This document shows, piece by piece, positions 6,342-21,099 of a DNA stretch of 64,000 bases. Source of the stretch: an uncultured Bifidobacteriaceae bacterium. GTDB taxonomy: Bacteria > Verrucomicrobiota > Verrucomicrobiia > Limisphaerales > UBA11358. The position numbers and the translations under genes were made by a program. Under the pieces are notes generated by a model. It saw only the letters and a list, made by a program, of their open reading frames with translations. It ran no database searches and was not told the origin of the DNA. How positions within the stretch are numbered: position 1 is the stretch's first letter; the number at the start of each line of letters is the position of its first letter. The DNA lies in NCBI GenBank assembly GCA_964536285.1, contig CAZHXG010000004.1:11121-75120 (forward strand), read 5' to 3'.

Positions 6342-7154
6342 ATGAGTGCAAAAGGTTTTCCTATGACTGAAAAAAGTGATCGAACAGCGTGGCTCAAAGG
6401 CGGCGATGCCCGTTGCCTGATTCCGCCGCGCAAACCTGTGGGACAAACATGGAGGCTGGTGCTGCTAGGCGCGCCCGGCGTCGGCAAGGGAACGCAGGCG
6501 GATTTGTTGAGCGAACGGCTCGGCGCTTGTCATTTGTCCACCGGCGATGTTTTCCGCGCCGCAAAATGTCAGGAGGATGGTGAGCGCTCTCCTGCAACGA
6601 AAATCGCGCTCGACTCGATGCGGCGCGGAGACCTTGTTTCCGATGAAATCGTCTTGGCGCTGGTGCGCGAACGTTTGCGCTGCCTGCGCTGTTCGGGCGG
6701 CTTTTTGCTCGACGGCTTTCCGCGCACCGTTGCGCAGGCGCAGGCGCTGGAAGATTTGTTGCAAAAAGAGCAAATAGATTTGACCGCAGTGTTCAATTAC
6801 GAATTGCCGCAAGAGCAGTTGATCGAACGCTTAAGCGGACGGCGCACCTGCGAAAAATGCAAATCCGTTTTTCACGTGACGAGCCTTCCGCCGCGCATGA
6901 AGGATGTTTGCGATTATTGTGGCGGAAAACTTTTTCAGCGGGAGGATGACCGGCCGGAATCCGTCCGGGTGCGGATGCAGGCTTACGAGCGGAGCACCCG
7001 GCCGCTGATTGATTTTTATCAAAAACGCGGATTGCTTGTCATGATTCAAGCGGCTGGCACGCCGGAAGAAACTTATCATCGAACCCTGATGCTCATGCGC
7101 GCTCAACAAATCCTCGGCAATTGCTCGCCGGTGGCCATGTCTAACACGCGCTGA
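6342..7154 (+). CDS. adk: Adenylate kinase with zinc-lid
   Basis: P-loop [12 protein letters not shown] and lid cysteines CEKC...CDYC. The start is uncertain: a GTG at 6438 would give the canonical [15 protein letters not shown]-terminus. The 3' end overlaps the convergent hypE by about 50 nt. Confidence 0.88.
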
Positions 7155-8161
7155 ACACCCACGAGACTTTTCAGCAAAACTTTTGCATGGCGCTGGTCGC
7201 TCACCTTGCCGATCGCGCAGGCGCTTTCGCCATTCGGACCCGCCCGCAGGACGGCTAATGCCCGTTCGGCGTCCCGCGCCGGGATGAACGCGGCAAATCT
7301 TCCTTCGCACGCGACTTGAAACGGATCGAGCCCGAGAATTTCACACGCGGCATGAACGTCTTCGCGCACCGGAATCAATTTTTCTTCAACTAAGAAAGTC
7401 AGTTTGACCGCCTCGGAAATTTCGTTGAGCGCGCTGGTCAGGCCGCCTCGCGTCAAGTCGCGCAGGCAATGGATTTCAATTCCAGCTTTAAGCAATTGTA
7501 AAACAGTTTCGTGAACCGGCGCGGAGTCGCTTTCGATTTGGCTCTCAAATTCCAAGCCTTCGCGCACGGCCATGATGGCCATGCCGTGCCGCCCCAAATC
7601 GCCGCTGACCAGAATCACGTCGCCAGATTCAACATTTTGCGGTGCGATTTTTTGCTCGTGCGCGACGACGCCGATGCCCGCCGTGTTGATGAACAGTCCG
7701 TCGCCTTTGCCTTTGTCCACGACCTTCGTGTCGCCGGTGATGATTTGCACGCCGCATTTTTTCGCCGCGTCGCGCATCGAACACACGACGCGCCACAAAG
7801 TTTCCATCGGCAGACCTTCTTCCAAAATAAATCCCGCGCTCAAGTAAAGAGGTCGCGCCCCGGCCATCGCCAGATCGTTCACGGTTCCATGCACCGCCAT
7901 CGAACCGACATCGCCACCGGGAAAAAACAGCGGGCGCACGACGTAGGAATCCGTCGTGAACGCAATTTTCTTTCCAGTCAATTCTACAACCGCGGCGTCG
8001 TGCTGCGTTTCAAGCAGCGGATTTTTGAAGGCCGCCAGAAACATTTTGCCGATGAGATCGTGCATCAACTTGCCGCCGCCGCCGTGCGCGAGCAGCACTT
8101 GTGGATAATTCCGGATCGGGAACGGACAAGCCGGCGCGAAATCTTTTTTCCCTTCGCTCAT
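7103..8161 (-). CDS. hypE: Hydrogenase maturation protein HypE (carbamoyl dehydratase)
   Basis: 352 aa PurM-like fold sequence ending in the diagnostic C-terminal PRIC motif. The start overlaps the hypD stop by 4 nt. Confidence 0.95.
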
Positions 8162-9276
8162 GATTTTTTGTCGGCTGCGTCTTCGACCAACTCATGCCGG
8201 CGATAGCGGTAATATGCCGCGCACGCGCCTTCGCTCGAAACCATCGTCGCGCCGAGCGGATGTTCCGGCGTGCATTTTGTTCCGAAGGCAGGGCATTCGT
8301 GAGGTTTGATTTGCCCTTGTAAAACAAGGCCGCTCAAGCACTCGGAAGGTTCCTCGACGCGAAGTTCCGCCACGCCGAATTTTTTTTCAGCGTCGAATGC
8401 CATATAAGCTTCACTCAATCCCAATCCGCTCTGCGGAATTTCGCCAACGCCGCGCCATTTGCGCGGAACGATCTGAAAAACTTCGCGGATGAGTTGTTGC
8501 GCCGGCAGATTGCCTTCGCGTCGAACGGAACGGCTGTATTGGTTTTCAACCTCGGCGCGGCCGGATTCCAGTTGTTGCACGACCATCAGCACGCCTTGCA
8601 AAATGTCCATCGGCTCGAAACCGGTGACGACAATCGGCACATGATATTTTTTCGCGATGGGAAAATATTCCTCGAAGCCCATCACCGTGCAGACGTGGCC
8701 GGCAGCGAGAAATCCCTGCACGCGGCAGTTCGGCGACGACATCAGCGCCTCCATCGCCGGCGGCACGAGCACGTGCGACACGAGCAGCGAAAAATTCTTC
8801 AAGTTTTTTTTGGCTGCTTGATAAACCGTCATCGCCGTCGCGGGCGCGGTCGTCTCAAAACCGACGCCGAAGAAAACGATTTCCTTCGTTGGATTTTGTT
8901 CGGCGAGTTTCAGGGTGTCGAGCGGCGAATAAACGATCCGCACGTCGCCGCCGCTGGCTTTGACGGACAGCAGATCCGTCGTGCTGCCCGGCACGCGCAG
9001 CATATCGCCGAATGAACAAAAAATCACGTTGGGCCGCGCGGCGATTTCCAGCGCCTTGTCAATCAGCTCGACGGCCGTGACACAAACCGGGCAGCCGGGT
9101 CCGTGAATCAGATTGATTTGCTTCGGCAAAAGTTCGTCGAGACCGAACTTGACGATGGCGTGCGTCTGGCCGCCGCAGACTTCCATGATCGACCACGGCT
9201 TCGTGGTGACGCGATGGATTTCGCGCGCGAGCTGACGCGCAAATTCCGCGTCACGATATTCGTCCAGAAATTTCAT
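8158..9276 (-). CDS. hypD: Hydrogenase maturation protein HypD
   Basis: 372 aa with the GPGCPVCV motif. 4-nt overlap with hypC. Confidence 0.95.
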
Positions 9277-9527
9277 GGCCCGCCTTCCTTCAACTCACTC
9301 AAGTCCTCCATCTGTTTCAGATACTCGAAAACTTTTTGCGCCTCATCCTCATCCAGTCGGCTGATGGCAAAGCCGACGTGAACAATGACATAATCGCCGA
9401 CCTTCGCCTCGGGCACGTAGGCCAGATTTGCCTGCTTGAGAATGCCGCCGAAATCAATTTTGCCGACGCGTTCCAGCGGATCTTCACCGCTGATGCTCAC
9501 AATTTTTCCTGGAATGGCTAGGCACAT
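9273..9527 (-). CDS. hypC: Hydrogenase assembly chaperone HypC/HupF
   Basis: 84 aa starting [10 protein letters not shown], the conserved N-terminal Cys2 motif. Confidence 0.93.
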
Positions 9528-9536
9528 CGTTAAAGG

Positions 9537-11855
9537 CTACTTCTTATCGCGCATCGCCGCAACAACTTGACCAAGAGCGATGCCGCCGTCGTTTGGCGGC
9601 ACACGTTGATGCCAATACGGTTTGAATTTTTCTTCGCGCAAACGTTTGACGGCGCGCTCTGTCAGATAACGATTTTGAAAACAACCGCCCGAAAGAACGA
9701 TGCGCGGCTCGCTAAATTTTTTTGCGATTTCGACAATCGCTTCAACGAGTGCGTTGTGAAATTTTGCAGAAATCTCGCTGACGGAAACGCCGCGTTTTAC
9801 ATCGGACAAAATTTCCTCAACCATCAACGACCAATCCAAAACAATTTCGGATTTGGTGGGGCGAGCGTCCTCGCGAGCCATAATTGAAAATTCGTAAGCT
9901 TCGTCGGTCTCAATTCCATCGAGTGCAAATTCCAATTCCATCGCCGCCTGTCCTTCAAAGCGCATGGTTTGATGCAAGCCAATCAGCGAAGCGACGGCGT
10001 CAAACAAACGTCCGGCGCTGGAAGTGAGCGGTGAATTGATTTTATTTTTCAACATTGTTTTCAGTGCGGCCAGTTCTGTTTTGGAAAATGCGGCAACCGT
10101 TGGAATCTTTCCTTGTCCAAAAATTGTGTCGCCAAAAATCTCATAGAGCAATCCGAGCGCGGAACGGCGCGGTTCTTTTACGGCCTTGTCGCCGCCGGGC
10201 AACCGGAACGGGCGCAAATGCCCAATGCGCTCAATTTTTTCGTTTGTTACGAGGAAAAATTCGCCGCCCCAAATCGTGCCGTCGAGTCCGTAGCCCGTGC
10301 CGTCCCACGAAACGCCGAGCGCCGGCGGTTCAAGTTCATTTTCCGCCATGCATGAAAGCACATGGGCGATGTGGTGTTGGACGCCGATGTGTTTGGGGAT
10401 TTCCAATTCGTCAGCAAATTTCGTCGAGAGATAATCCGGATGCAAATCGGCGGCGACAATTTCCGGTTTAGTTTCGTAAAGTTTTTCAAAGTCGGCGATC
10501 ACACGACGAAAAGCGTTGTTCGCCGGTTCAGTTTCCAGATCACCGATATGCTGGCTGATGAAAACCTGATGGCCGACCGAAAGTGCGACGGCATTTTTCA
10601 AATGCGCGCCGACGGCCAGAACAGATTGGGAATCCGGAGCCGAAATTTTAGAATTCAAAACGACCGGCAATGGCGCGTATCCGCGCGCGCGGCGCAAAAC
10701 CATTTCGCGATTGAGCATCACGCGCACGATGGAATCGTCCACGTGACGGACAATCGGACGATCATGAACCAAAAACAGATCGGCGATGCCGCGCAATCGT
10801 TCGAGCGCCTCGCGTTCATCCGTGCAAATCGGTTCGTCGCTCAAATTGCCGCTCGTGGCAGCGACAGGAAAATTCAGTTCGGCCAGAAGTAGATGATGAA
10901 GCGGCGTGTAAGGCAACATCGCGCCGAGGCTGGGATTGTTCGGTGCGACTGAATTTGCGATTTGCGATTTTTTGTTCGCGATTTTTTTCAACAAAACAAT
11001 CGGAGCTTCGGGCGAGCGCAGCAAACGTTCTTCCAGCGGCGAAACTTCGCAAACGGATTTCACGCTTTTGAGCGATGGAAACATGAGAGCGAGCGGTTTT
11101 TCTTCGCGATGTTTTCGTTTGCGCAAGCGTTGGACGGCGGCTTCGTTGTTCGCGGCGACCATCAAATGAAATCCGCCGAGTCCTTTGACCGCCACGATTT
11201 TGCCGCGACGAATTGCGTTTGCGGCGGCGAGCAATGTTTCGTTGCGTCCGAATAACGCTTCGCAGTTTGAATCCCAAAGTTCCAAATGCGGCCCGCAAAC
11301 CGGACACGCATTCGGCTGTGCGTGGAAACGGCGGTCGCGCGGGTCGTCATATTCGGCCTGACATTCGGGGCACATCGCGAATTTTTTCATCGAGGTGTTG
11401 GCGCGATCGTAAGGGAGCGATTCGATGATGCTAAAACGCGGGCCGCAGTTCGTGCAGTTGGTGAACGGATAAGCATGCCGACGGTTTTTTGGATTGAAAA
11501 TTTCGCGAAGACAATCGGAGCAAGTGGCGATGTCCGGCAAAATGAGTGCGGTTTTGCCGCCGGAATCTTCACTTTTCCGGATCTCAAACTTTTTGTAGCC
11601 GACAGCATCGAGCCATGTCGCTTCCAAACTTTGAATGAAACTGCGCGGCGGCTTTTCGTTTTCAAGCTGCAACAGGAATTTTTCCAATTTGATTCGCGGG
11701 CCTTCGGCTTCGATGAAGACGCCCTGCGGAGAATTGTTGACCCAGCCTTTCAAGCCGAGTCCGGTGGCCAGACGAAAAATAAAGGGTCGGAAGCCGACGC
11801 CTTGCACCGCGCCGCGAACGGCGATCTTCAATCGCGTTGCCGGCGGAGTTTTCAT
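9537..11855 (-). CDS. hypF: Carbamoyltransferase HypF
   Basis: 772 aa. N-terminal acylphosphatase-like VQGVGFRPF, two CxxC zinc-finger pairs (CSDC...CTNCGPRFS, CPEC...CPVCGP), then YrdC-like and Kae1-like regions. Confidence 0.95.
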   Translation of the reverse strand: MKTPPATRLKIAVRGAVQGVGFRPFIFRLATGLGLKGWVNNSPQGVFIEAEGPRIKLEKFLLQLENEKPPRSFIQSLEATWLDAVGYKKFEIRKSEDSGGKTALILPDIATCSDCLREIFNPKNRRHAYPFTNCTNCGPRFSIIESLPYDRANTSMKKFAMCPECQAEYDDPRDRRFHAQPNACPVCGPHLELWDSNCEALFGRNETLLAAANAIRRGKIVAVKGLGGFHLMVAANNEAAVQRLRKRKHREEKPLALMFPSLKSVKSVCEVSPLEERLLRSPEAPIVLLKKIANKKSQIANSVAPNNPSLGAMLPYTPLHHLLLAELNFPVAATSGNLSDEPICTDEREALERLRGIADLFLVHDRPIVRHVDDSIVRVMLNREMVLRRARGYAPLPVVLNSKISAPDSQSVLAVGAHLKNAVALSVGHQVFISQHIGDLETEPANNAFRRVIADFEKLYETKPEIVAADLHPDYLSTKFADELEIPKHIGVQHHIAHVLSCMAENELEPPALGVSWDGTGYGLDGTIWGGEFFLVTNEKIERIGHLRPFRLPGGDKAVKEPRRSALGLLYEIFGDTIFGQGKIPTVAAFSKTELAALKTMLKNKINSPLTSSAGRLFDAVASLIGLHQTMRFEGQAAMELEFALDGIETDEAYEFSIMAREDARPTKSEIVLDWSLMVEEILSDVKRGVSVSEISAKFHNALVEAIVEIAKKFSEPRIVLSGGCFQNRYLTERAVKRLREEKFKPYWHQRVPPNDGGIALGQVVAAMRDKK

Positions 11856-11864
11856 GAAATCCTT

Positions 11865-12212
11865 TCAGCGTTCGATCTCGAAACCGAGCAGAAGCATGTC
11901 GGTCGGGTTGACGGCCTTGAGGTCGAGCGATTGGCATTTGGGACATTCGTCCGGCAGATGATGAGTCTCGAATTCGTGGCCGCATTTCTGGCAGCGCACC
12001 AGCGGTTCGACTTCTGTCAACTCAAGCTCGGCGTCTTTGGTGAGAGGATGTTCTTTTTTGACGATGTCAAAACTGAAGCGGACGTGATCGCCGCTGTGGC
12101 TGGTGAGCGCGTTGGCGCGGATTTTGACGAGCTTCACGCGTTTGGCTTTTTGCGCGGCGGCCTGTTTTTCGACCGCGTCGAGTATCGCGCGAACAAGATG
12201 GACTTCATGCAT
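11865..12212 (-). CDS. hypA: Hydrogenase nickel insertion protein HypA
   Basis: 115 aa with the N-terminal MHE motif (MHEVHLV) and zinc-site cysteines CQKC...CPKC. Confidence 0.92.
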   Translation of the reverse strand: MHEVHLVRAILDAVEKQAAAQKAKRVKLVKIRANALTSHSGDHVRFSFDIVKKEHPLTKDAELELTEVEPLVRCQKCGHEFETHHLPDECPKCQSLDLKAVNPTDMLLLGFEIER

Positions 12213-12231
12213 AAAATTCTTTCTATCCTAT

Positions 12232-12699
12232 TTATGCAGCTTGCGCGGCGATGCTGCAAATTTTTTCGACGGCTACGTTAAAACCGCGACGGGCGACGGG
12301 TGACAATTCGTCGCCGAATCCAAAATCTTCAACCGGAATCGTCAGCCACCAAGCCGGCGGGCAATAGCCGAAAACTTCGTGCGCAAGTGCGAGCAGGGAA
12401 TGTGGATTCGCCGCGTGGGCCATGACATTGACGGTTTCATCCGGCTTGAGCTTGAGCGTTTGGACTTCTTTCGAAGCGAGCGTTGCGGCATCCACAAAAA
12501 TCACCCGGCTCGAATGTGAAATCGGGTCGGCTAGTTCGGGAGTCAGTTGATGGCAGATGTGGATGCGAACTCCGGGAAGATTCATTTTGGCGACCGCGGC
12601 GGCGACCTTCGGGCCGACTCCGTCGTCACGGCGCAATTCGTTGCCGTAGCCGATGACGAGCAGGCCGGCGGTTGGAGGTTGTGATTCTTTTTTATTCAC
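12232..12699 (-). CDS. hoxW: Hydrogenase maturation endopeptidase (HoxW/HybD family)
   Basis: 155 aa with GYGNELRRDDGVGPKVA, typical of the large-subunit C-terminal processing proteases. Confidence 0.88.
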   Translation of the reverse strand: MNKKESQPPTAGLLVIGYGNELRRDDGVGPKVAAAVAKMNLPGVRIHICHQLTPELADPISHSSRVIFVDAATLASKEVQTLKLKPDETVNVMAHAANPHSLLALAHEVFGYCPPAWWLTIPVEDFGFGDELSPVARRGFNVAVEKICSIAAQAA

Positions 12700-12708
12700 G
12701 TTATGAGC

Positions 12709-13602
12709 TTAAACATTTTTTCCCTGTATGCCAACTTCATCGGCAGGCGCATGACTGTATGTCAGATCGCGGGGCAACAATAATGCGGTGAGCAGCCAAC
12801 CATAGGTAAGGGAATCCAAAAGCAGTTCGACGCTGTGGACGCTTCGCAGCGTCCACGGCATCCAGAATGCCTGCATCAATCCGTAAAGCCCGGAAACGAC
12901 AAACAGGTTCAAGCCGAACGTCCAGCCAAACCGTCGTCGCGAACCCGACCAGGCAACCAAAATGGGCAACGCGGCCAGCAAAGCGAAAATGCTGCGGATG
13001 GACTGCACTCCGAGGAGAGCCAGCAACGAGGACGGAAGCCGAAGGCCGAACTCGTGGTTGCGATAACTGTCCGAGACAATCAATCCGACCGGCATGCCGA
13101 AAACGAAATACACGATTGGAAAGGCAAGCACGACCACCGACAGCCGGAGTGTCCATTGAGCGGACGTTCGATTGGCGAAAAATTGGCGGAGGTCGCTGGA
13201 AAATGTCGTCCCAGATTTTCTGCCATTGAAAAGCAGCACGATCGCGCCGGCCACAGACAAAGACAGAAACAGCATGGTAACGGCCGACAAAGTTTCGCCA
13301 CCGATGGTGGTGAAGACATGCGCCTCAATGCCGTTGTTGATTCCCATCCACGCGTAAACGAACCAGGCGACGACCGCAAAGCGTGTCCAGCGGTTTCCTC
13401 CAAGCCGGCGCGACAATTCGGCGAGCGCCATTGCGACTACAACTCCAGAGGCGAGAGCATAATAGCCGAACACCCGCATGTCCAAAGGCTCGGGGAATTT
13501 TGGCTGCTCCAATCCCAACGCGGTTGAGAACATGCCGCCGGCCATCGTGCCAGCCACCAGACTCAACGTGCACAGAAAAATTTTTCCGATATATTTGATC
13601 AT
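12709..13602 (-). CDS. Polytopic membrane protein of unknown function
   Basis: 297 aa with about 8 hydrophobic segments. The start overlaps the stop of the upstream kinase gene (ATGA), and the gene ends 9 nt before hoxW. Confidence 0.6.
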   Translation of the reverse strand: MIKYIGKIFLCTLSLVAGTMAGGMFSTALGLEQPKFPEPLDMRVFGYYALASGVVVAMALAELSRRLGGNRWTRFAVVAWFVYAWMGINNGIEAHVFTTIGGETLSAVTMLFLSLSVAGAIVLLFNGRKSGTTFSSDLRQFFANRTSAQWTLRLSVVVLAFPIVYFVFGMPVGLIVSDSYRNHEFGLRLPSSLLALLGVQSIRSIFALLAALPILVAWSGSRRRFGWTFGLNLFVVSGLYGLMQAFWMPWTLRSVHSVELLLDSLTYGWLLTALLLPRDLTYSHAPADEVGIQGKNV

Positions 13603-15122
13603 AATTTAACCGGTTTGGATTTGTCCTGCTGGAAACGACGCATCCTGCGATGCTCGGCGGATTTCGCCATCAATTGGGGAATCCAGCCTATCGCCAGGAA
13701 AAAAATTACGGCAAAGGGCAGCACTTTAAACACCTTGTCCACCATTTTCCCGATCCAAGGGTTGAAAAAAACATCGGCTGCCGGACTGACCAAATGGGGT
13801 CCCATCACAAATTTTCCGACGACGACCTGACCGCAGGCATAATAACCAACAACAAGCCCGCCCACCGCAACGGGAGCGAGCGCAAGTCCGCCCACGGCCC
13901 ACCATAATCCCACCGCGACGCTGCCGCTTGCGATCACGCCGACCGCCACAACCGAAATGGAAACAATTCCGTAACCAAAGATGCCGCAGGCAATCACCCC
14001 CACAGCCGTATCGCCGAATGCGATCACTCCTCTGGCCGAGCTTCCCAGCGCGATGACCCCCCTTGCGCTTCGCTTGCGGCCAGTCGCTGGATCAACGCCC
14101 ATCGCCATGTGCAGCAGCGGCCAGCCAAATAATGTGGCCTTGGAACGATATTCATAACTCATTTTGCGGCTCGCCTCCGGCGAAAGTTTTGAAGCAACGC
14201 CGGCAATCGACTCCAGTTCAGTCCTGATTTCAGCCGCCTGCTGGTAGCGGCTCTTTGGATTTCTTTCCAGAATTTTCAGCACCAACTCGTCGAGCCGCGA
14301 GTCCACCGCCGATTTTTGGGAAGGCAATTCAAACCGGCCGAGCGGCAATTCGCCCGTCAGCATTTCGTAGAACACCACGCCCAGCGAATAAAGATCGGCG
14401 CGATGATCCACTTCAAGCGGTTTGTCAATTTGTTCCGGGGCCATGTAGTGCATCGTGCCCATCACTTGATTGGACATCGTCAATTGCAAGTCCTGCCGCG
14501 CCACACCCAGCAATTTTGACAATCCGAAGTCAGCAATTTTCACGTGACCCTTTTTGTCTATTAAAATATTTTCCGGCTTGATGTCGCGATGGACAACACC
14601 TTCGCCGTGGGCGTATTCGAGCGCTTCACAAATTTGCAGCGTCAGGTTCAGCGCGTCACGCGGCGCCAATTGACCGGCCTGCAACATTTGCCGCAGATTT
14701 ATGCCATCCACGAATTCCATGAGGAAGTAGTAAAGCGGACCGGTCTGGCCAAGATCGAAAACGGTCACGACATTCGGATGGTTCAGGCGGGCCAGGGCGC
14801 GCGCTTCGCGGGCGAAGCGTTCGGCAAAGGCCGGCTCGGCGGAAATTTGCGGAGGAAGAATTTTGAGCGCCACCATCCGGTCAAGGCCGCGCTGCCGCGC
14901 CTTGTAAACGGCGCCCATGCCCCCATGACCGAGCAGCTCAAGGACTTCGAGTTGTGGGAAAAGATTTTTTATCGCGTCCGGGTGCGGTGGAGAAAAATCG
15001 GGGCCTTGCCGTGGCGACAATCTGATTGTCGCGCCTGCCTCTAGGCATTTGGGACACAACCTCTGCGTTGAATCCGCAGGAAGTTCTGCTTTGCAAGACT
15101 CGCAAATTCGCAACGTTTTCAT
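13599..15122 (-). CDS. Hanks-type Ser/Thr protein kinase with N-terminal zinc ribbon and C-terminal glycine-rich membrane region
   Basis: CESC...CPKC at the N-terminus. Kinase motifs GHGGMGAVYKA, HRDIKPENILI, DFGLSK, YMAPE. The C-terminal part carries repeated GVIA-type hydrophobic repeats. Confidence 0.92.
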   Translation of the reverse strand: MKTLRICESCKAELPADSTQRLCPKCLEAGATIRLSPRQGPDFSPPHPDAIKNLFPQLEVLELLGHGGMGAVYKARQRGLDRMVALKILPPQISAEPAFAERFAREARALARLNHPNVVTVFDLGQTGPLYYFLMEFVDGINLRQMLQAGQLAPRDALNLTLQICEALEYAHGEGVVHRDIKPENILIDKKGHVKIADFGLSKLLGVARQDLQLTMSNQVMGTMHYMAPEQIDKPLEVDHRADLYSLGVVFYEMLTGELPLGRFELPSQKSAVDSRLDELVLKILERNPKSRYQQAAEIRTELESIAGVASKLSPEASRKMSYEYRSKATLFGWPLLHMAMGVDPATGRKRSARGVIALGSSARGVIAFGDTAVGVIACGIFGYGIVSISVVAVGVIASGSVAVGLWWAVGGLALAPVAVGGLVVGYYACGQVVVGKFVMGPHLVSPAADVFFNPWIGKMVDKVFKVLPFAVIFFLAIGWIPQLMAKSAEHRRMRRFQQDKSKPVKL

Positions 15123-15486
15123 TTGGCTTACGGCAAGACTTGCCTGTTTCAGTTTCGTCGCGGCTCGAAGAATCGGCCTCCCGCAATTTGGCTTTCAATC
15201 CACTTCTTTTGCGCTCAAGGAAAAAATCACAATCTGAAATGTTGCTGAAGCCAAGAGCGGGACAACGCTTCAGCAGTTTCGCCACGCGTGTTGGTCCTAG
15301 CTCAATTCAGGAAACTTATATACAATGTTACCCTTGATTTGGCTTGATGTAGTTTGAATTGCTCTCATTTGAAGTCAGCTCTTCTTTTGGTTTCGTGAAT
15401 AAACGACAACAGCAGCCGCGATGATAATTAGCAGGACTAAAAACCCTGAAGTAGAGCCAGACAATGATGCTAACAAAGGTTTCACT

Positions 15487-16911
15487 TTAACTCCTTGTTA
15501 GTTCCTTAATTATCGCACCGTCTGAACCGACCAACTGGATTTGCAACGGCATCTGTCCGACGGCATGTGTCGAACAACTTAAGCACGGATCGTAACAGCG
15601 GATTCCATGCTCGACGCGATTGAGCATCGCTTCCGGGATTTCCTTCCCTTTGATGTAGTGCCGCGCGATTTGCGCGACGGTCTGGTTCATCGCCAGATTA
15701 TTTTGTCCGGTGGCGATGACGAGATTGACCTTCGTGATCAGACCGTTGCGATCCACCGCGTATTGATGGAACAACGTGCCTCGCGGCGCTTCGCTTACGC
15801 CCACGCCTTCAAGTTTGTTGATGCCGGCATCGGCGCGCAAATCGCCGGACAACAATTCCGGGTCGTCCATGTATTTCTCGATGCGCTCGATGCAGGCGAC
15901 AATTTCAATCAGCCGCGCGTAATGATAAAGGAACGACGATGTGACGACTCCATGTCCCATTTTTTTGAACTGTTTCAACTCCGCATCAGCCAGTGGCGTG
16001 CCGATGTTTCTGCAAATGTTCAGGCGCGCGAGCGGACCGACGCGATACATGCCACCGGGATAACCGAGCGGCTTGTAGTAAGGCGACTTGAGATAAGATG
16101 TCGGTTGCGTCGCCTCGCCGATGTAATCCTTGAAATTTTGCGCGTCAATCTGGTCGGCAACAATATGGCCGTAGCTGTCCATGAAACGCAGTTTGCCACC
16201 GTGATGTTCCCATTCGCCATCCGATCCGACGAGTCCCATGAAAAGCGAAGGGAAGTTTCCAAAAACTTGCGCTTCGCGTTCATGCGTCTCCAAAATCTTT
16301 TTGAACAAATCGAGCGCGATTTTCGAAGTTGCATACGCTTCCGGCAGCCAGTTGCGAATCTTCGTCCGACCTTCTTCCGTCAAAGCACTGCGCACGCCAC
16401 CGGGCACGGCCCACGGCGGATGGATTTTCTTGCCGCCGAGCGTCTCGATGATTTCCTGACCGAATTGACGCAATCGGATTCCAGCCCGCGCAAGGTTTGG
16501 ATGTGTTGCAACAATGCCGAAAACATTCCTTTGTGCAGGCGGCGTATCCCAGCCGAGCAAAAAATCCGGCGCGCTCAAATGAAAGAAACTCAACGCGTGT
16601 GACTGAAGGAGTTGTCCGAGATTCATCAGCCGGCGCAATTTGTCGGCGGCGGGCGGAATGGTCACGGCCATGATGGTGTCGCCTGCCTTGGCCGATGCGA
16701 GCAAATGGCTGATGGGGCAAATGCCGCAGATGCGCTGCGTGATGCCGGGCATCTCGGTATAAGGCCGGCCTTCGCAAAATTTTTCAAAGCCGCGGAACTC
16801 GACGACATGAAACGCGGCGTCCGTCACCTTGCCGTCGTCGCCGAGGTAGATGCTGATTTTCGCGTGACCTTCGATTCGCGTCACAGGATTGATTAAGATT
16901 CGTTGCGCCAT
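15487..16911 (-). CDS. hoxH: Bidirectional [NiFe] hydrogenase large subunit
   Basis: N-terminal RIEGH and [11 protein letters not shown]-terminal DPCLSCSTH followed by a cleavable extension. I prefer the ATG at 16911; the track start at 16929 is a TTG that overlaps hoxY. Confidence 0.95.
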
Positions 16912-16921
16912 AAAAATTCTT

Positions 16922-17470
16922 TCAGCCAAATTTGATGTCCAAGCCCGCGAGTTTGGGTTCTTTACCCGCGATCATTTGTTCCAATAAAAATCTGATGCGT
17001 GCCGCGGGCGGCGGGCAGCCGGGCAGATAATAATCCACGTGCACGACTTCCTGCACCGGCATCACGCGCTTCAAAAGCACCGGCACGACGCCGGGGTCTC
17101 TCGGAATCTGCGGATTCGTTTCCGACAATTCGACGTAAGCGCGTTGCAAAACATTTTCGTCATTGCCAAGGCCAAGCTGATTGCGAATAGCCGTGACGTT
17201 GCCCGTGACCGCGCAGTCGCCGAAGGCAACGATGATTTTTGACCGTTCACGAATCTTGTGCGCCATCTCGACATGCTCCTCGTTGCATACTGCGCCTTCG
17301 ATGAGGCAAACGTCCACGTTTTTTGGAAATTCCTTTGCGTCCACGACCGGGCCGTAGACGATGTCCACGTGCTGCGCCAGGTCGATGAGAAATTCGTCCA
17401 GATCCAAAAAGGACATATGACAGCCGGAGCAGCCGCCGAACCAGGTTGATGCCAGTCTTATACGATCCAT
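16922..17470 (-). CDS. hoxY: Bidirectional [NiFe] hydrogenase small subunit
   Basis: [23 protein letters not shown]... The ATG at 17470 overlaps the hoxU stop. The upstream 189 codons of the 371-aa track ORF are Arg/His-rich out-of-frame readthrough over hoxU. Confidence 0.9.
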
Positions 17471-18174
17471 TGTTTTTTCTCCCGTGCGTTGACGATGAAT
17501 TCGAGTTTTGTGCGGTCGCGTTCCATTTCGGCCACCGTCGAGCCTTTGTGGAACAGCGCGCCGGTCGGACAGGATTGCACGCATTTGCCGCAGGACGTGC
17601 AGGTTTCGGAATCGCCCCACGGCATGTTGAGGTCGCTGATGATTTTGGATTTGCCGCCGCGGCCGGAAACATTTTTCGTTCCCGCGCCCTCGATGTGCCA
17701 GCACACGCGCACGCAGCGCGTGCAAAGGATGCAACGGTTGTGATCCATGCCGAACAGCTTGTGCGTCGCGTCCACGTTCCATTTCGGATAACAATAATCG
17801 TAACGGACATGATCCATGCCTTGCGAATAGGCGAGCGTCTGCAATTCGCAATGGCCGTTCGCCACGCACACGGCGCAGATGTGATTCCGTTCCGCGAACA
17901 AAAGCTCCAGCGTCATGCGGCGGTATTTTTGTAACCGCTCGCTGTCGGTCTTGATGTCCATGCCCTCGGCGATTTTCGTGGTGCAGGCCGGAAGAAGTTT
18001 GGGCACGCCGGTGATTTCCACGATGCAAAGGCGGCACGCGCCCACGTCATAAACGCCATCGAGATGGCAGAGCGTGGGAATCTTCACGTCAGCTTCTTCC
18101 GCAGCCTGCAAAATCGTCGTGCCTTCCTCGGCGCTGATTTCCTTCCCATCAATGGTTAAAGTTTTGACGGCCAT
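17458..18174 (-). CDS. hoxU: Diaphorase iron-sulfur subunit (NuoG N-terminal-like)
   Basis: 238 aa. 2Fe-2S region CRLC, then [11 protein letters not shown] and [12 protein letters not shown] clusters. Confidence 0.93.
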
Positions 18175-18181
18175 AAAATTT

Positions 18182-18667
18182 TCAAGGGCTTGATTGTGAA
18201 CGAATCAATTTAAGACCAGTGGCTGTCAGCGCCATTTTCTCTTTTCTCGCTTTTTCGGAAGAAAACACACACAACGATCCGTTGGTGTCAATTTGCCCTG
18301 TGAAAGAACCATTGCTAAAATCACAGATCATCGTCAATTCCGGGCGCGTAATGCCTTCAGCAGCCACTATGGCGCCATCAAGTTTGCCCGTGATCAGGGT
18401 ATGCCCCCACGGCCAGCTGCGATGCGACAGGAAATGGCCCGCGGCGAGTGTGGCATCACCAATTTTTCCCGTCACACTTCCGTCTGCGTGGATGTCCAGC
18501 GCGACTGTGAGATTTGTTTGATGGCACCATGAAACAATGATTCGCGCGTTTCCTTCCCAATGACCAACCATTGGCGGAGTAATGATGCTTTCGGATGAAA
18601 ATAAATTCCAAGTCGTCAACACAGTGAACGCAATCATCAAAGCCGTGATATGAAATTTTTTGTTCAT
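18182..18667 (-). CDS. Hypothetical exported protein embedded in the hox operon
   Basis: 161 aa with a signal-peptide-like N-terminus [24 protein letters not shown]. The start overlaps the hoxF stop (ATGA), and the gene ends 8 nt before the hoxU start. Confidence 0.6.
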
Positions 18668-20307
18668 ACGATTACCGTTTTTTTCTTCAATTCACCATTA
18701 CTACGCGGGCCAAATTCGTCCGGTTGCAACAACTCTTCATATTCGTTTCGGAAAAATCGAAGGGTGCTCAACGTGGGATTCGGCGCGGTCTGGCCGAGTC
18801 CGCAAAGACTCGTGTTCTTCACCATGTCGCAAAGTTCTTCCAGCTTCGCCAAATCGCGCGCGGTGGCCTTGCGATTCAAAATCTTTTCCAGCAGGTGAAG
18901 CATCTGCACCGTGCCGGCGCGGCAGGGAATGCATTTGCCGCAGGATTCGTCCACGCAGAACTCCATGAAATAGCGTGCGACATCCACCATCTTCGTCGAG
19001 TCATCCATCACGATCATGCCGCCCGAACCCATGATGGAGCCGAGTTTGCCGAGCGATTCGTAATCCACCGGCGTATCCAAATGTTGCGACGGAATGCAGC
19101 CGCCGGACGGTCCGCCGGTTTGCACGGCTTTTATTTTGCGTCCATCGGGCGCGCCGCCGCCCATTTCCTCGACGATTTGTCGCAGAGGAGTGCCCATCGG
19201 CACTTCGATGAGGCCGGTGTTGTTGATTTTTCCGGCGAGCGCAAAAACTTTTGTTCCTTTGCTTTTTTCTGTGCCAATGCTCGCGAACCAATCCGCACCT
19301 TTGCGAATGATCGGCGGCACGTTGGCGAAAGTTTCGACGTTATTGATCAAAGTCGGACAGCCCCACAATCCGCTTTCGGCGGGGAACGGCGGACGCGGAC
19401 GCGGCGTGCCGCGCTTGCCTTCGACGGAGGCCATCAATGCGGTCTCTTCGCCGCAAACGAACGCACCCGCACCGATGCGAATGTCGATGTTGAAGCTGAA
19501 AGGCGACTCAAAAACTCCGCTGCCGAGCAAGCCAAGTTGTTTCGCCTGCTTGATTGCAAGCTGCAGCCGCTTGATTGCGAGCGGATATTCGGCGCGGCAA
19601 TAAATAAAACCTTGATTCGCGCCGACGGCATAAGCGGCGATGGCCATGCCTTCGAGCACGCTGTGCGGATCGCTTTCCAAAACACTGCGATCCATGAACG
19701 CGCCGGGGTCGCCTTCGTCCGCATTGCAAATGACATACTTCTGCGCGCTTTGTGTTTTGGCGACCGTGCTCCATTTAAGACCGGTCGGAAAACCCGCGCC
19801 GCCGCGCCCGCGCAAGCCGCTCTTGATCATCGAATCCACTACGTCCTTCGGCGTCATCTCGCGAAGTACGTGATGCAATCCCTGATAACCGTCGGCGGCG
19901 ATGTAAGCTTCGATCCGTTCTGGGTCGATTTTGCCGCTGTTGGCCAGAACGATGGACAATTGCTTTTTGAAAAATGGATTCTGCGGATCACCGACTTTGA
20001 CGTTTGTCTTGCCGCCTTTCAAAGTGTCGATGAGCGAGCGAGCGTCTTCCGGCGTGACCTTTTCGTAAAGCGTGCCCTTCGGGTCAACGCCCACGAGCGG
20101 GCCTTCGCAACAGAGTTTCATGCAGCCGACACCGCGCACTTCGACTTCATCGCTCAAGCCTGCGTCCTTCACCGCTTGGTCGAGATTTTTTTTGACGGTT
20201 TCGGAATTGGACGACATGCAACCCGCGGCCATGCAGCAGCGGATGACCGTTTTTTTGCGCGCGGCGCGTTCCTTTTCGGCAATCACATGGAGATCATCAT
20301 TTACCAT
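18664..20307 (-). CDS. hoxF: Diaphorase NAD(P)H-binding FMN subunit (NuoF-like)
   Basis: 547 aa with [13 protein letters not shown] and [10 protein letters not shown] motifs. Confidence 0.95.
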
Positions 20308-20827
20308 TTGGAATCCAGTTTTTTATGTGTTCAAGCGTGGTTTCAGGCGTCTGGCGCGGTGTGACGACACCGTCGAAAACAACGGCGGGGGCAATACCGC
20401 ACGCGCCGATGCATCGCGCGGTTAAAAGGGAAAGTTGATTGTCCGAGGTCGTTTCACCGGCTTTGATTTTTGATTTCGCTTCGACAGCGGCGAGGACTTT
20501 GTCCGCGCCTTTCACATAACAGGCCGTGCCGAGGCAGACGACGCAGGTGTGTTTACCTTGCGGTTTGAGCGTAAAAAAATGATAAAATGTCGCAACGCCA
20601 TAGACGCGGCTTGCGGGCAACTTGAGCCGGTAGGCGACGAACAAAAGCAAATCGTCTTCGAGATAGCCGAAGAGTTCCTGTGCCTTGTGCAAAACCTCGA
20701 TGAGCGCGTCCTGCCGATACTGGTGCTTCTTCATGTGCACTTCAAGAATCTTGAAACGCTTGTCGCCGCTGGCGTGCTGCATCACGCGGTCGACCGTCTT
20801 CTGTTTTTCATGCAAGAGTATTGACAT
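20297..20827 (-). CDS. hoxE: Diaphorase 2Fe-2S subunit (NuoE-like)
   Basis: 176 aa with cysteine motifs CLGTAC...CIGACGIAP. First gene of the minus-strand hox string. Confidence 0.9.
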
Positions 20828-21099
20828 AAGCCATCAAATTAAGTCTGACGCGCTCAACATAGTGGCGGCGGAACAAGGACTCTCCACGTAACTTGGCTTT
20901 GACTGCACATTTTTTGTTCCTGTAAGGCGGAGGAGAACGAAGCCGGGAAAATTGCGGCGGCATTTTTTAATTCATTAAAAAATTTTCCAAGCCGGATCGG
21001 TAGCAAGAATTGCGAAGACTTTGACAAGGGAAGAGAAGAGGCATTGGTCTTGTTGCATCAGATTTGTCCCACGAACAACGAACCAACCAAATCCATTTT

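Follow-up and report, generated by a model that had tools for sequence, protein, structure and literature searches.

The genes of [NiFe]-hydrogenases are controlled by histidine-kinase H2 sensors and by transcription factors of the LexA/AbrB, NtrC and FNR types. In the HoxBC-HoxJ-HoxA system of Ralstonia eutropha, the soluble histidine kinase HoxJ acts through the response regulator HoxA together with a regulatory hydrogenase. This system, which controls hydrogenase expression, resembles the locus described here in that genes for kinase signalling accompany those of a [NiFe]-hydrogenase and of Hyp proteins, but none of its components has a homologue among the proteins of the two-gene module reported below. 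A second parallel is provided by LiaS-LiaF and BceS-BceAB, intramembrane-sensing histidine kinases which rely on an accessory membrane protein and whose partners and stimuli are known. Similar to these systems, our locus encodes a kinase that lacks an extracytoplasmic sensor, and its gene adjoins that of a polytopic membrane protein from which the signal could come; here, however, the kinase is of the Hanks type, the partner comes from an apparently undescribed family and the interaction is putative. The nearest precedent for control of a hydrogenase by a Hanks-type kinase is a proposal made for [FeFe] sensory hydrogenases, according to which the HydS sensor signals to a Ser/Thr kinase encoded next to it (Zheng et al. 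2014, cited in PMC5707799). Like our locus, the HydS/HfsB systems of Ruminococcus albus and Thermoanaerobacterium place a Ser/Thr kinase gene, proposed to regulate H2 metabolism, inside a hydrogenase cluster; they differ in their [FeFe] type, their PAS-bearing sensory hydrogenase, their PP2C phosphatase and Rex (PMC5707799), whereas our cluster encodes a [NiFe] Hox enzyme and a predicted membrane-bound kinase paired with a polytopic membrane protein. A domain search of the ORFs between hoxE and hypE returned no sensory hydrogenase, PAS domain, phosphatase or response regulator. An earlier note on this DNA knew of no described role for Ser/Thr phosphorylation in NiFe-hydrogenase maturation or Hox regulation. 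For [NiFe] enzymes our literature search likewise found no paper tying a Hanks kinase to the hydrogenase, but the statement has to be qualified in view of the path from HydS to a kinase proposed for [FeFe] enzymes (PMC5707799).

The window, by which we mean the whole 64,000-nucleotide stretch of DNA that was analysed, contains a Group 3d-like, NAD-coupled bidirectional Hox cluster in which HoxE/F/U, HoxY/H, the endopeptidase and hypA/C/D/E/F were all matched by Pfam and NCBIfam models. No hypB match above cut-off was found anywhere in the genome. The cluster is made up as follows:

20297-20827, minus strand: hoxE (Pfam and NCBIfam)
18664-20307, minus strand: hoxF (Pfam and NCBIfam)
18182-18667, minus strand: orf161, between hoxF and hoxU
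17458-18174, minus strand: hoxU (Pfam and NCBIfam)
16922-17470, minus strand: hoxY (Pfam and NCBIfam)
15487-16929, minus strand: hoxH (Pfam and NCBIfam; orthologues with PF27537 HoxH)
15487-20827, minus strand: structural [NiFe]-hydrogenase block hoxE-hoxF-orf161-hoxU-hoxY-hoxH, NAD-coupled, bidirectional
13599-15122, minus strand: Hanks-type Ser/Thr kinase, 507 aa (Pfam and NCBIfam)
12709-13602, minus strand: 8-TM protein, 297 aa (ORF and AlphaFold2 model)
12232-12699, minus strand: hoxW, endopeptidase (Pfam and NCBIfam)
11865-12212, minus strand: hypA (Pfam and NCBIfam)
9537-11855, minus strand: hypF (Pfam and NCBIfam)
9273-9527, minus strand: hypC (Pfam and NCBIfam)
8158-9276, minus strand: hypD (Pfam and NCBIfam)
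7103-8161, minus strand: hypE (Pfam and NCBIfam)
7103-12699, minus strand: maturation block hoxW-hypA-hypF-hypC-hypD-hypE, starting 9 nt after the TM gene

A 371-aa ORF that could be taken for a hoxU/Y fusion is an alternative-frame extension, and hoxU and hoxY are separate genes. The kinase and 8-TM genes lie between hoxH and hoxW exactly as first described, with every coordinate and junction correct: the kinase stop and the TM-gene start overlap by 4 nt (ATGA), the TM-gene stop is 9 nt from hoxW, and 364 nt separate hoxH from the kinase, the remaining junctions being overlaps or gaps of 7-19 nt. We could also confirm the physical linkage of the pair to hoxW and hyp. The packing of kinase, TM gene and hoxW is tight both here and in relatives, in which the first two genes overlap or are 4 nt apart and hoxW follows after 9-12 nt. 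The kinase and TM genes are probably translationally coupled, a feature shared with the intramembrane-sensing systems.

The kinase matches the Pfam Pkinase model PF00069 over residues 59-298 with 187.5 bits (cut-off 31.7) and is predicted to be catalytically competent, its catalytic motifs all being intact (GHGGMG at 65, VALK at 84, HRDIKPEN at 178, DFG at 198 and APE at 228). An N-terminal CxxC...CxxC zinc ribbon (residues 7-26) precedes the kinase domain (59-316), which is followed by a Gly-rich, Gly-zipper hydrophobic region of roughly 150 aa (about 350-470), one classical TM helix (about 475-495) and a basic tail. The kinase itself is predicted to be anchored in the membrane via this Gly-zipper region and the TM helix, an observation that adds to the earlier note, and its catalytic domain would be cytoplasmic. 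The best NCBIfam match is the PknB/PASTA model NF033483, at 300.2 bits below the equivalog cut-off of 450; the match is restricted to the kinase domain (model positions 10-278 of 563), and Pfam and NCBIfam searches found no PASTA repeats. For these reasons we rejected an assignment as a PknB/Stk1 PASTA kinase. The protein shares with PknB/Stk1 a cytoplasmic kinase domain with a complete set of catalytic motifs, but in place of PASTA or other extracellular domains it has the zinc ribbon and the C-terminal Gly-zipper membrane region.

The gene order hoxH-kinase-TM-hoxW-hyp, with the pair at this position, is shared by 16 species-level genomes, all of them peat or soil Limisphaerales. These occurrences stem from one or very few insertion events and so do not count as 16 independent pieces of evidence. 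The kinase tree is broadly congruent with that of HoxF+HoxH, which argues for vertical inheritance. Most related hox-hyp clusters, in the genus as in the order, have no pair, and hoxW directly follows hoxH (as in G460). In addition, there were at least two clean losses of the pair: G034 and G026, which fall within the pair-bearing clade, have hox and hyp intact and yielded no remnants of it. It follows that Hox functions without the pair and that the pair is dispensable for maturation. The gating of maturation and the nickel delivery put forward in the earlier note are not supported by these results, and searches assigned the TM protein to no family of nickel transporters. Two genomes (L044 and L045) carry a divergent hoxEFUYH type, with HoxH only 57-58% identical, and nevertheless have the pair in the same slot (kinase 76-77% and TM protein 69-72% identical), which indicates that the pair keeps to the hoxW-hyp block. 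In 15/16 hox-located copies neither ORF is disrupted even though synonymous divergence is saturated (dS about 1); in one lineage the kinase frame is shifted by the loss of 1 nt from a run of G. The kinase has dN/dS values of 0.09-0.19 and the TM gene of 0.23-0.29, similar to those of hoxW and hypF, which indicates purifying selection on both genes.

Two copies of a 40-nt cis-element and the spacer ahead of the kinase gene bear on how the pair may be expressed:

20881-20920, minus strand: 40-nt cis-element upstream of hoxE (GGAACAAAAAATGTGCAGTCAAAGCCAAGTTACGTGGAGA), ending 53 nt before the hoxE ATG
15176-15215, minus strand: 40-nt cis-element upstream of the kinase (AGCGCAAAAGAAGTGGATTGAAAGCCAAATTGCGGGAGGC), ending 53 nt before the kinase ATG
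15123-15486, minus strand: hoxH-kinase spacer, 364 nt, holding a 36-codon ORF immediately 3' of hoxH

The kinase-upstream element is a close variant of the one upstream of hoxE. A PWM built solely from hoxE-upstream sites of other genomes ranked the hoxE site first (37 bits) and the kinase site second (25.1 bits) among the 4.76 million positions of the own genome, the next match scoring 19.4, and in 1.16 Mb of loci its only matches were hoxE-upstream and kinase-upstream sites. An 18-nt degenerate core has exactly two genome-wide matches in each of five pair-bearing genomes and a single one, upstream of hoxE, in three genomes whose hox cluster has no pair, with zero matches for reversed-pattern controls. 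As expected of a regulon, the element is thus specific to the promoters of its members, here the kinase and hoxE. It is kept upstream of the kinase in 12 hox-located and two sucC-located loci. The kinase of four other lineages, which has neither element nor zinc ribbon, begins 20-80 nt downstream of hoxH and appears fully integrated in the hox operon there. The spacing of the element fits neither sigma-54 nor ECF nor sigma-70 hexamers, and the occurrence of a 13-mer of it on contig C21 of the own genome is a chance match to unrelated sequence with no wider similarity. The spacer itself ranges from 20 nt to 1.3 kb in relatives, some of which have an additional small gene in it. Its predicted RNA structure is no more stable than that of shuffled sequence (fold z = -0.56), an Rfam search of 12600-15600 returned nothing at E <= 1, and a scan for consensus promoters and terminators gave counts at chance level, with none in the minus-strand spacer and no terminator-like site.

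We believe, with a probability of roughly 0.55, that the pair is an accessory membrane signalling module which is co-regulated with the Hox regulon and heads the hoxW-hyp operon, and which is not required for maturation. The kinase and the TM protein would form one two-gene module, placed between hoxH and hoxW in one peat/soil Limisphaerales clade; the kinase, held in the membrane and devoid of an extracytoplasmic sensor domain, would have the TM protein as its likely partner or co-sensor. The two genes would head a kinase-TM-hoxW-hypAFCDE unit carrying its own copy of the element that precedes hoxE. Since this element is shared, the module and the maturation genes are probably turned on with the structural hydrogenase genes, and whichever factor reads it would switch both operons. 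The module would then most likely tune hydrogenase-linked physiology or exert feedback on the regulon through phosphorylation.

It is also possible, though we are inclined to doubt it, that the module is a passenger inserted at a permissive intergenic hot spot, with a job in envelope or general energy signalling unrelated to the hydrogenase. Its persistence would then reflect selection against rearrangement inside an operon, and the element, a promoter fragment duplicated at insertion, would record history only. Indeed, the hoxH/hoxW junction bears several distinct insertions in other lineages, among them a 5-kb block (G001), a lipoprotein-like ORF, a DUF3788 gene, and a second kinase with an ECF-like sigma factor; with such varied and unrelated insertions, position alone is weak evidence of function. 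The two clean losses with hox and hyp retained fit this explanation as well, as do the membership of the kinase in a large paralogous zinc-ribbon kinase family of the order, the unrelated contexts of the TM family elsewhere (remote members adjoin an NmrA-like epimerase, ROK or MFS gene) and the presence of the module beside sucCD in loci without hox genes. The element could, moreover, be duplicated promoter DNA that was carried along and not a selected binding site. However, the kinase copies beside sucC, outside the hox cluster, retain a high-scoring element (33.8 bits in L038 and 54.6 bits in L063), and a hitch-hiking promoter remnant would have no reason to persist there. The element is, moreover, confined to two sites in each of several genomes. 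The TM gene is intact in 16/16 hox-located pairs, and its decay coincides exactly with a location outside the hox cluster: in G017 it is absent and in L063 it is a truncated pseudogene, and both have the kinase elsewhere. Finally, the pair outlasted the exchange of the hoxEFUYH type.

An accessory signalling role is to be weighed also against the notion that the TM protein is the functional core, either as a metal (nickel) importer or as a docking site in the membrane for Hox or its maturation machinery, with the kinase regulating it. The AlphaFold2 model of the TM protein (pLDDT 86.6) has eight long helices and one short amphipathic helix. Its conserved residues are E93, G169, P190, R74, R153, Y165, Y180, R203, H256 and E259, and the conserved Glu/His/Glu(/Asp) residues, which would favour a core role, are located in membrane helices, with the Glu/His/Glu site probably near the outer membrane face. 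The position of the gene 9 nt before hoxW, with hypA next, and the lack of a hypB match point the same way, as does the occurrence of ZIP metal transporters among the best, non-significant fold matches, of which BbZIP was the top one (E = 0.28, TM-score 0.13). Nevertheless, we consider such a role unlikely. Assignments as a NiCoT, HupE/UreJ or ZIP transporter were rejected for want of a Pfam, NCBIfam or PDB sequence match, and Foldseek against the PDB returned nothing significant (E >= 0.28, TM-score <= 0.30). The clusters of pair-less relatives likewise have no hypB and yet keep hox and hyp, and the neighbours of remote family members named above are unrelated genes. The protein matches no Pfam or NCBIfam family, none of 36 family members matched Pfam even at E = 10, and a PDB sequence-profile search gave nothing at E <= 10; judged by these searches, it belongs to an undescribed family, which has 898 members in a representative-protein search. 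A profile scan of 400 genomes across the phylum, whose coarse pre-filter may miss remote members, added none at E <= 1e-5. A CPBP/Rce1-like protease (PF02517) was also rejected: there was no Pfam match, Foldseek against 4cad gave E = 2.0 and a TM-score of 0.15, and of the motifs EExxxR/FxxxH/HxxxN the protein has a single conserved His (H256) and one Glu in the first motif. The kinase-linked TM proteins group together in the family tree (100% support, long stem branch), in line with a partnership of kinase and TM protein. A kinase gene also lies directly after one Brocadiaceae homologue, but a single case among about 14 loci does not exceed chance where genomes are rich in kinases, and we rejected a general link between this family and kinases. 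That the pair is a decaying, non-functional remnant of an old insertion is very improbable, as the frameshift in one lineage and the two clean losses are outweighed by ORFs intact in nearly all hox-located copies at saturated dS, by intact catalytic motifs and by dN/dS well below 1, so that the selection analysis already contradicts decay.

Beyond an accessory module co-regulated with the Hox regulon, the pair may, more tentatively, be a dedicated Ser/Thr-phosphorylation regulator of this [NiFe] regulon. The TM protein would sense a membrane or periplasmic cue via its Glu/His/Glu site, for instance redox state, proton motive force or a metal. The kinase would in turn phosphorylate a Hox or Hyp protein, or on the factor reading the 40-nt element, thereby closing an autoregulatory loop over both operons.

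H2 turnover in peat and soil matters for carbon cycling. The carriers of the pair are all uncultured, they trace back to one or very few insertions, and the enzyme can be made without the pair; within these limits, the locus offers a concrete case in which a Ser/Thr kinase may control a Hox enzyme of peat and soil Verrucomicrobia. Its compact two-promoter "hox regulon" element would be usable as bait for its regulator. Moreover, the module may be a first starting point for understanding the function of a membrane-protein family that is so far uncharacterised and has about 900 representative sequences.

The gene order, gap and overlaps described in the earlier note were all borne out by our ORF map, translations and junction sequences, with hox and hyp genes identified by Pfam and NCBIfam. 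On the minus strand, hoxE, hoxF, a 161-aa ORF, hoxU, hoxY and hoxH are followed, after 364 nt, by the gene for a 507-aa Hanks-type kinase (13599-15122), the gene for a 297-aa transmembrane (TM) protein with eight helices (12709-13602), hoxW and hypA-F-C-D-E; the kinase stop and TM-gene start share an ATGA, and hoxW begins 9 nt past the TM gene. The 161-aa ORF (18182-18667, minus strand), whose start shares 4 nt with the hoxF stop and which leaves a 7-nt gap to hoxU, has no Pfam match and has homologues in two further lineages only (L048, 81% identical; L052, 52%); it is a further lineage-specific insert in the hox operon. The host genome (G000), a 2.38-Mb MAG that is 94% complete, has just five Pkinase genes, and its named relatives are Limisphaerales/Verrucomicrobiia MAGs of peat and soil origin. 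No hypB scored above the TIGR00073 cut-off in this genome (best 20.6 bits), despite tightly packed hypA, C, D, E and F plus hoxW.

The main new result of our analysis is a cis-element shared by the kinase and hoxE. Aligned upstream regions contain a conserved block of about 40 nt before the kinase, both in hox-located copies and in a copy in genome G017, and a mismatch-tolerant search recovered a related block ahead of hoxE in many loci, at a distance of some 50-110 nt. The consensus is nacGCAAAAnAnGTGnAnnaAAAgCCAAATTGCGgGgAGa, and the window has two copies:

20881-20920, minus strand: 40-nt element, hoxE copy, ending exactly 53 nt before the hoxE start codon
15176-15215, minus strand: 40-nt element, kinase copy, ending exactly 53 nt before the kinase start codon

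A position weight matrix trained solely on hoxE-upstream sites of other genomes, scanned over all 4.76 million positions of the own genome, gave its highest score to the genome's hoxE site (37.0 bits); the kinase site came next (25.1), and the third-ranked match scored 19.4. Across 1.16 Mb of fetched loci, the only matches above 16 bits lay ahead of hoxE or of the beginning of the type-B operon, ahead of the kinase, and at a second copy in genome G026. An 18-nt degenerate core matched exactly twice genome-wide in each of five pair-bearing genomes and once, upstream of hoxE, in three genomes with a pairless hox cluster, while its reversed control pattern had no genome-wide matches in the genomes scanned. 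The main rival to our reading of the pair as a signalling module, namely that it is a passenger inserted at a permissive site, does not easily explain an element exclusive to two sites per genome. Compared with sigma-factor classes the element could be assigned to none, and it has no Rfam match. The extra G026 copy (L075 7753-7792; G026:C33:16752-16791) is a near-identical version of the hoxE-type element, 5.6 kb away from the one at hoxE. It is located at the 3' end of a second, convergently oriented gene pair for a [NiFe]-hydrogenase large subunit and a protease, and no gene is obvious downstream of it on its own strand.

The expectation that the kinase and TM genes would accompany hoxW and hyp in related genomes held in part: the pair recurs at hoxW-hyp in 16 species-level genomes, the own genome included, but most orthologous clusters are without it. 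Among 60 relatives, TM homologues occurred in four genomes, all of the same genus and all with the order hoxEFUYH-kinase-TM-hoxW-hyp; metagenome contigs, together with species-representative genomes that were scanned, brought the total to 16, and these occurrences are not independent events. All genomes compared are MAGs, several loci carry labels of other phyla, probably through mis-binning, and some long-read assemblies (L034, L047) contain frameshift errors. Orthologous HoxH (71-79% identical) is far commoner than the pair, and in most such clusters hoxW follows hoxH by about 100 nt. In a HoxF+HoxH tree every pair-bearing locus falls in one clade (SH-aLRT 97), within which G034 and G026 are nested yet lack the pair, with no remnants of it found in either; this topology is consistent with a single gain followed by clean loss on at least two occasions, and losses are also accounted for by a passenger. 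Because close relatives lack the pair, it cannot be required for maturation.

In two pair-bearing loci (L044, L045) the hoxEFUYH genes are of a different type (HoxH 57-58% identical), yet the kinase (76-77%) and the TM protein (69-72%) are close and occupy the same slot; the pair therefore keeps to the hoxW-hyp block even where other structural genes are present. The genus has two distinct hoxEFUYH types, one with HoxH about 76% and the other with HoxH about 57% identical to that of the window (L025, L026, L027, L044 and L045 versus other loci). The hoxW-hyp blocks to which the two types are joined are very similar, which suggests that the structural genes were swapped by recombination.

Outside hox clusters, a kinase orthologue lies beside sucCD in two genomes (G017, L063), an alternative location for which a passenger would account. 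No TM gene follows this kinase in G017. In L063 the TM gene is present as a pseudogene: two frameshifts interrupt it, and its last 90 codons, the conserved His/Glu motif included, are deleted; the hox cluster of the L063 genome is normal, hoxH being followed directly by hoxW. Thus the TM gene is intact in 16/16 hox-located pairs versus 0/2 away from hox, a raw count that ignores phylogeny. The sucC-located kinases retain the 40-nt element, and neither this retention nor TM-gene decay away from hox is easily explained by passenger insertion. In four lineages the kinase has neither zinc ribbon nor element and starts 20-80 nt after hoxH. Kinase expression is predicted to be tied to hox control sequences in every architecture.

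The hoxH/hoxW junction is a hot spot for other insertions too, as the passenger reading would have it: we found a 5-kb block (G001), a lipoprotein-like ORF, a DUF3788 gene, and a second kinase with an ECF-like sigma factor (G030; Sigma70_r4_2 at 1e-5, r2 at 0.009). The G001 block (L023 2016-7086) holds unrelated ORFs on both strands between hoxH and hoxW, one encoding a protein of low complexity that appears to carry a signal sequence at its N-terminus, and the G030 insert (L006 10446-14314), between TM gene and hoxW, encodes a 1035-aa zinc-ribbon Ser/Thr kinase and the 254-aa sigma factor. In the window, a 36-codon ORF (15375-15485, minus strand) with a GTG start directly 3' of the hoxH stop codes for a single hydrophobic helix plus a basic tail; its position is occupied in other lineages by the lipoprotein-like ORF, about 155 aa long (L007, L008, L009), or the DUF3788 gene (L035).

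The kinase matches Pkinase at 187.5 bits with all catalytic motifs intact, and a CxxC...CxxC zinc ribbon lies at its N-terminus. The C-terminal 150 residues make up a Gly-rich hydrophobic region, which leads into a single classical TM helix and then a basic tail; the kinase is therefore probably membrane-anchored without a sizeable extracytoplasmic domain. Pairwise dN/dS values for kinase (0.09-0.19) and TM gene (0.23-0.29) are comparable to those of hoxW and hypF. In one lineage the loss of a single nucleotide from a run of G (GGGGG to GGGG; L035 9223-9226, also L034 and L048) splits the kinase ORF at residue 248; it recurs in two assemblies from different samples and in the species-representative genome, the TM gene there is intact, and it may be real decay or sequencing error.

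A confident AlphaFold2 model of the TM protein, computed from a 36-sequence alignment (pLDDT 86.6, pTM 0.86), shows eight TM helices plus one short amphipathic helix. The protein has no Pfam, NCBIfam or PDB sequence match and no significant PDB fold match (best E = 0.28; TM-score at most 0.30). A profile search recovered 898 representative sequences, the named members being "hypothetical protein" entries from Verrucomicrobiota, Planctomycetota and Acidobacteriota. Among 66 diverse members E93, G169 and P190 show no variation, and R74, R153, Y165, Y180, R203, P249, H256 and E259 are at least 90% conserved; with topology assigned by the positive-inside rule, E93, Y180, H256, E259 and D263 would lie towards the outer membrane face. 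Kinase-linked TM proteins form one clade with 100% support and a long stem, separate from solo paralogues (at most 52% identity) that adjoin unrelated genes. Rare fusions join family members to ICMT/PEMT-like and DUF6804 domains; in the remote members P0126, P0076, P0088 and P0092 the ICMT/PEMT-like methyltransferase domain or DUF6804 is C-terminal. In a Brocadiaceae MAG (L062 9977-12249), a homologue (44% identical) is followed 72 nt on by a 429-aa Ser/Thr kinase of different architecture, which could be an independent pairing or chance.

HoxJ/HoxA of Ralstonia, a histidine-kinase H2 sensor, is among the closest precedents for the kinase-TM module, and intramembrane-sensing kinases with accessory membrane proteins provide a mechanistic one. 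Another of the closest is the route from HydS to a Ser/Thr kinase proposed for [FeFe] hydrogenases (Zheng et al., 2014, as cited in PMC5707799). All of these have only the generic kinase fold in common with the window's module, and a full-text literature search returned no paper combining Hanks-type, NiFe, hydrogenase and kinase. On the best-supported reading, the pair was recruited into the Hox regulon as an accessory signalling module made up of a kinase and its membrane partner; the module would lead the hoxW-hyp operon under the same control element as hoxE, and its target may be Hox or Hyp proteins, the element's regulator or something different.
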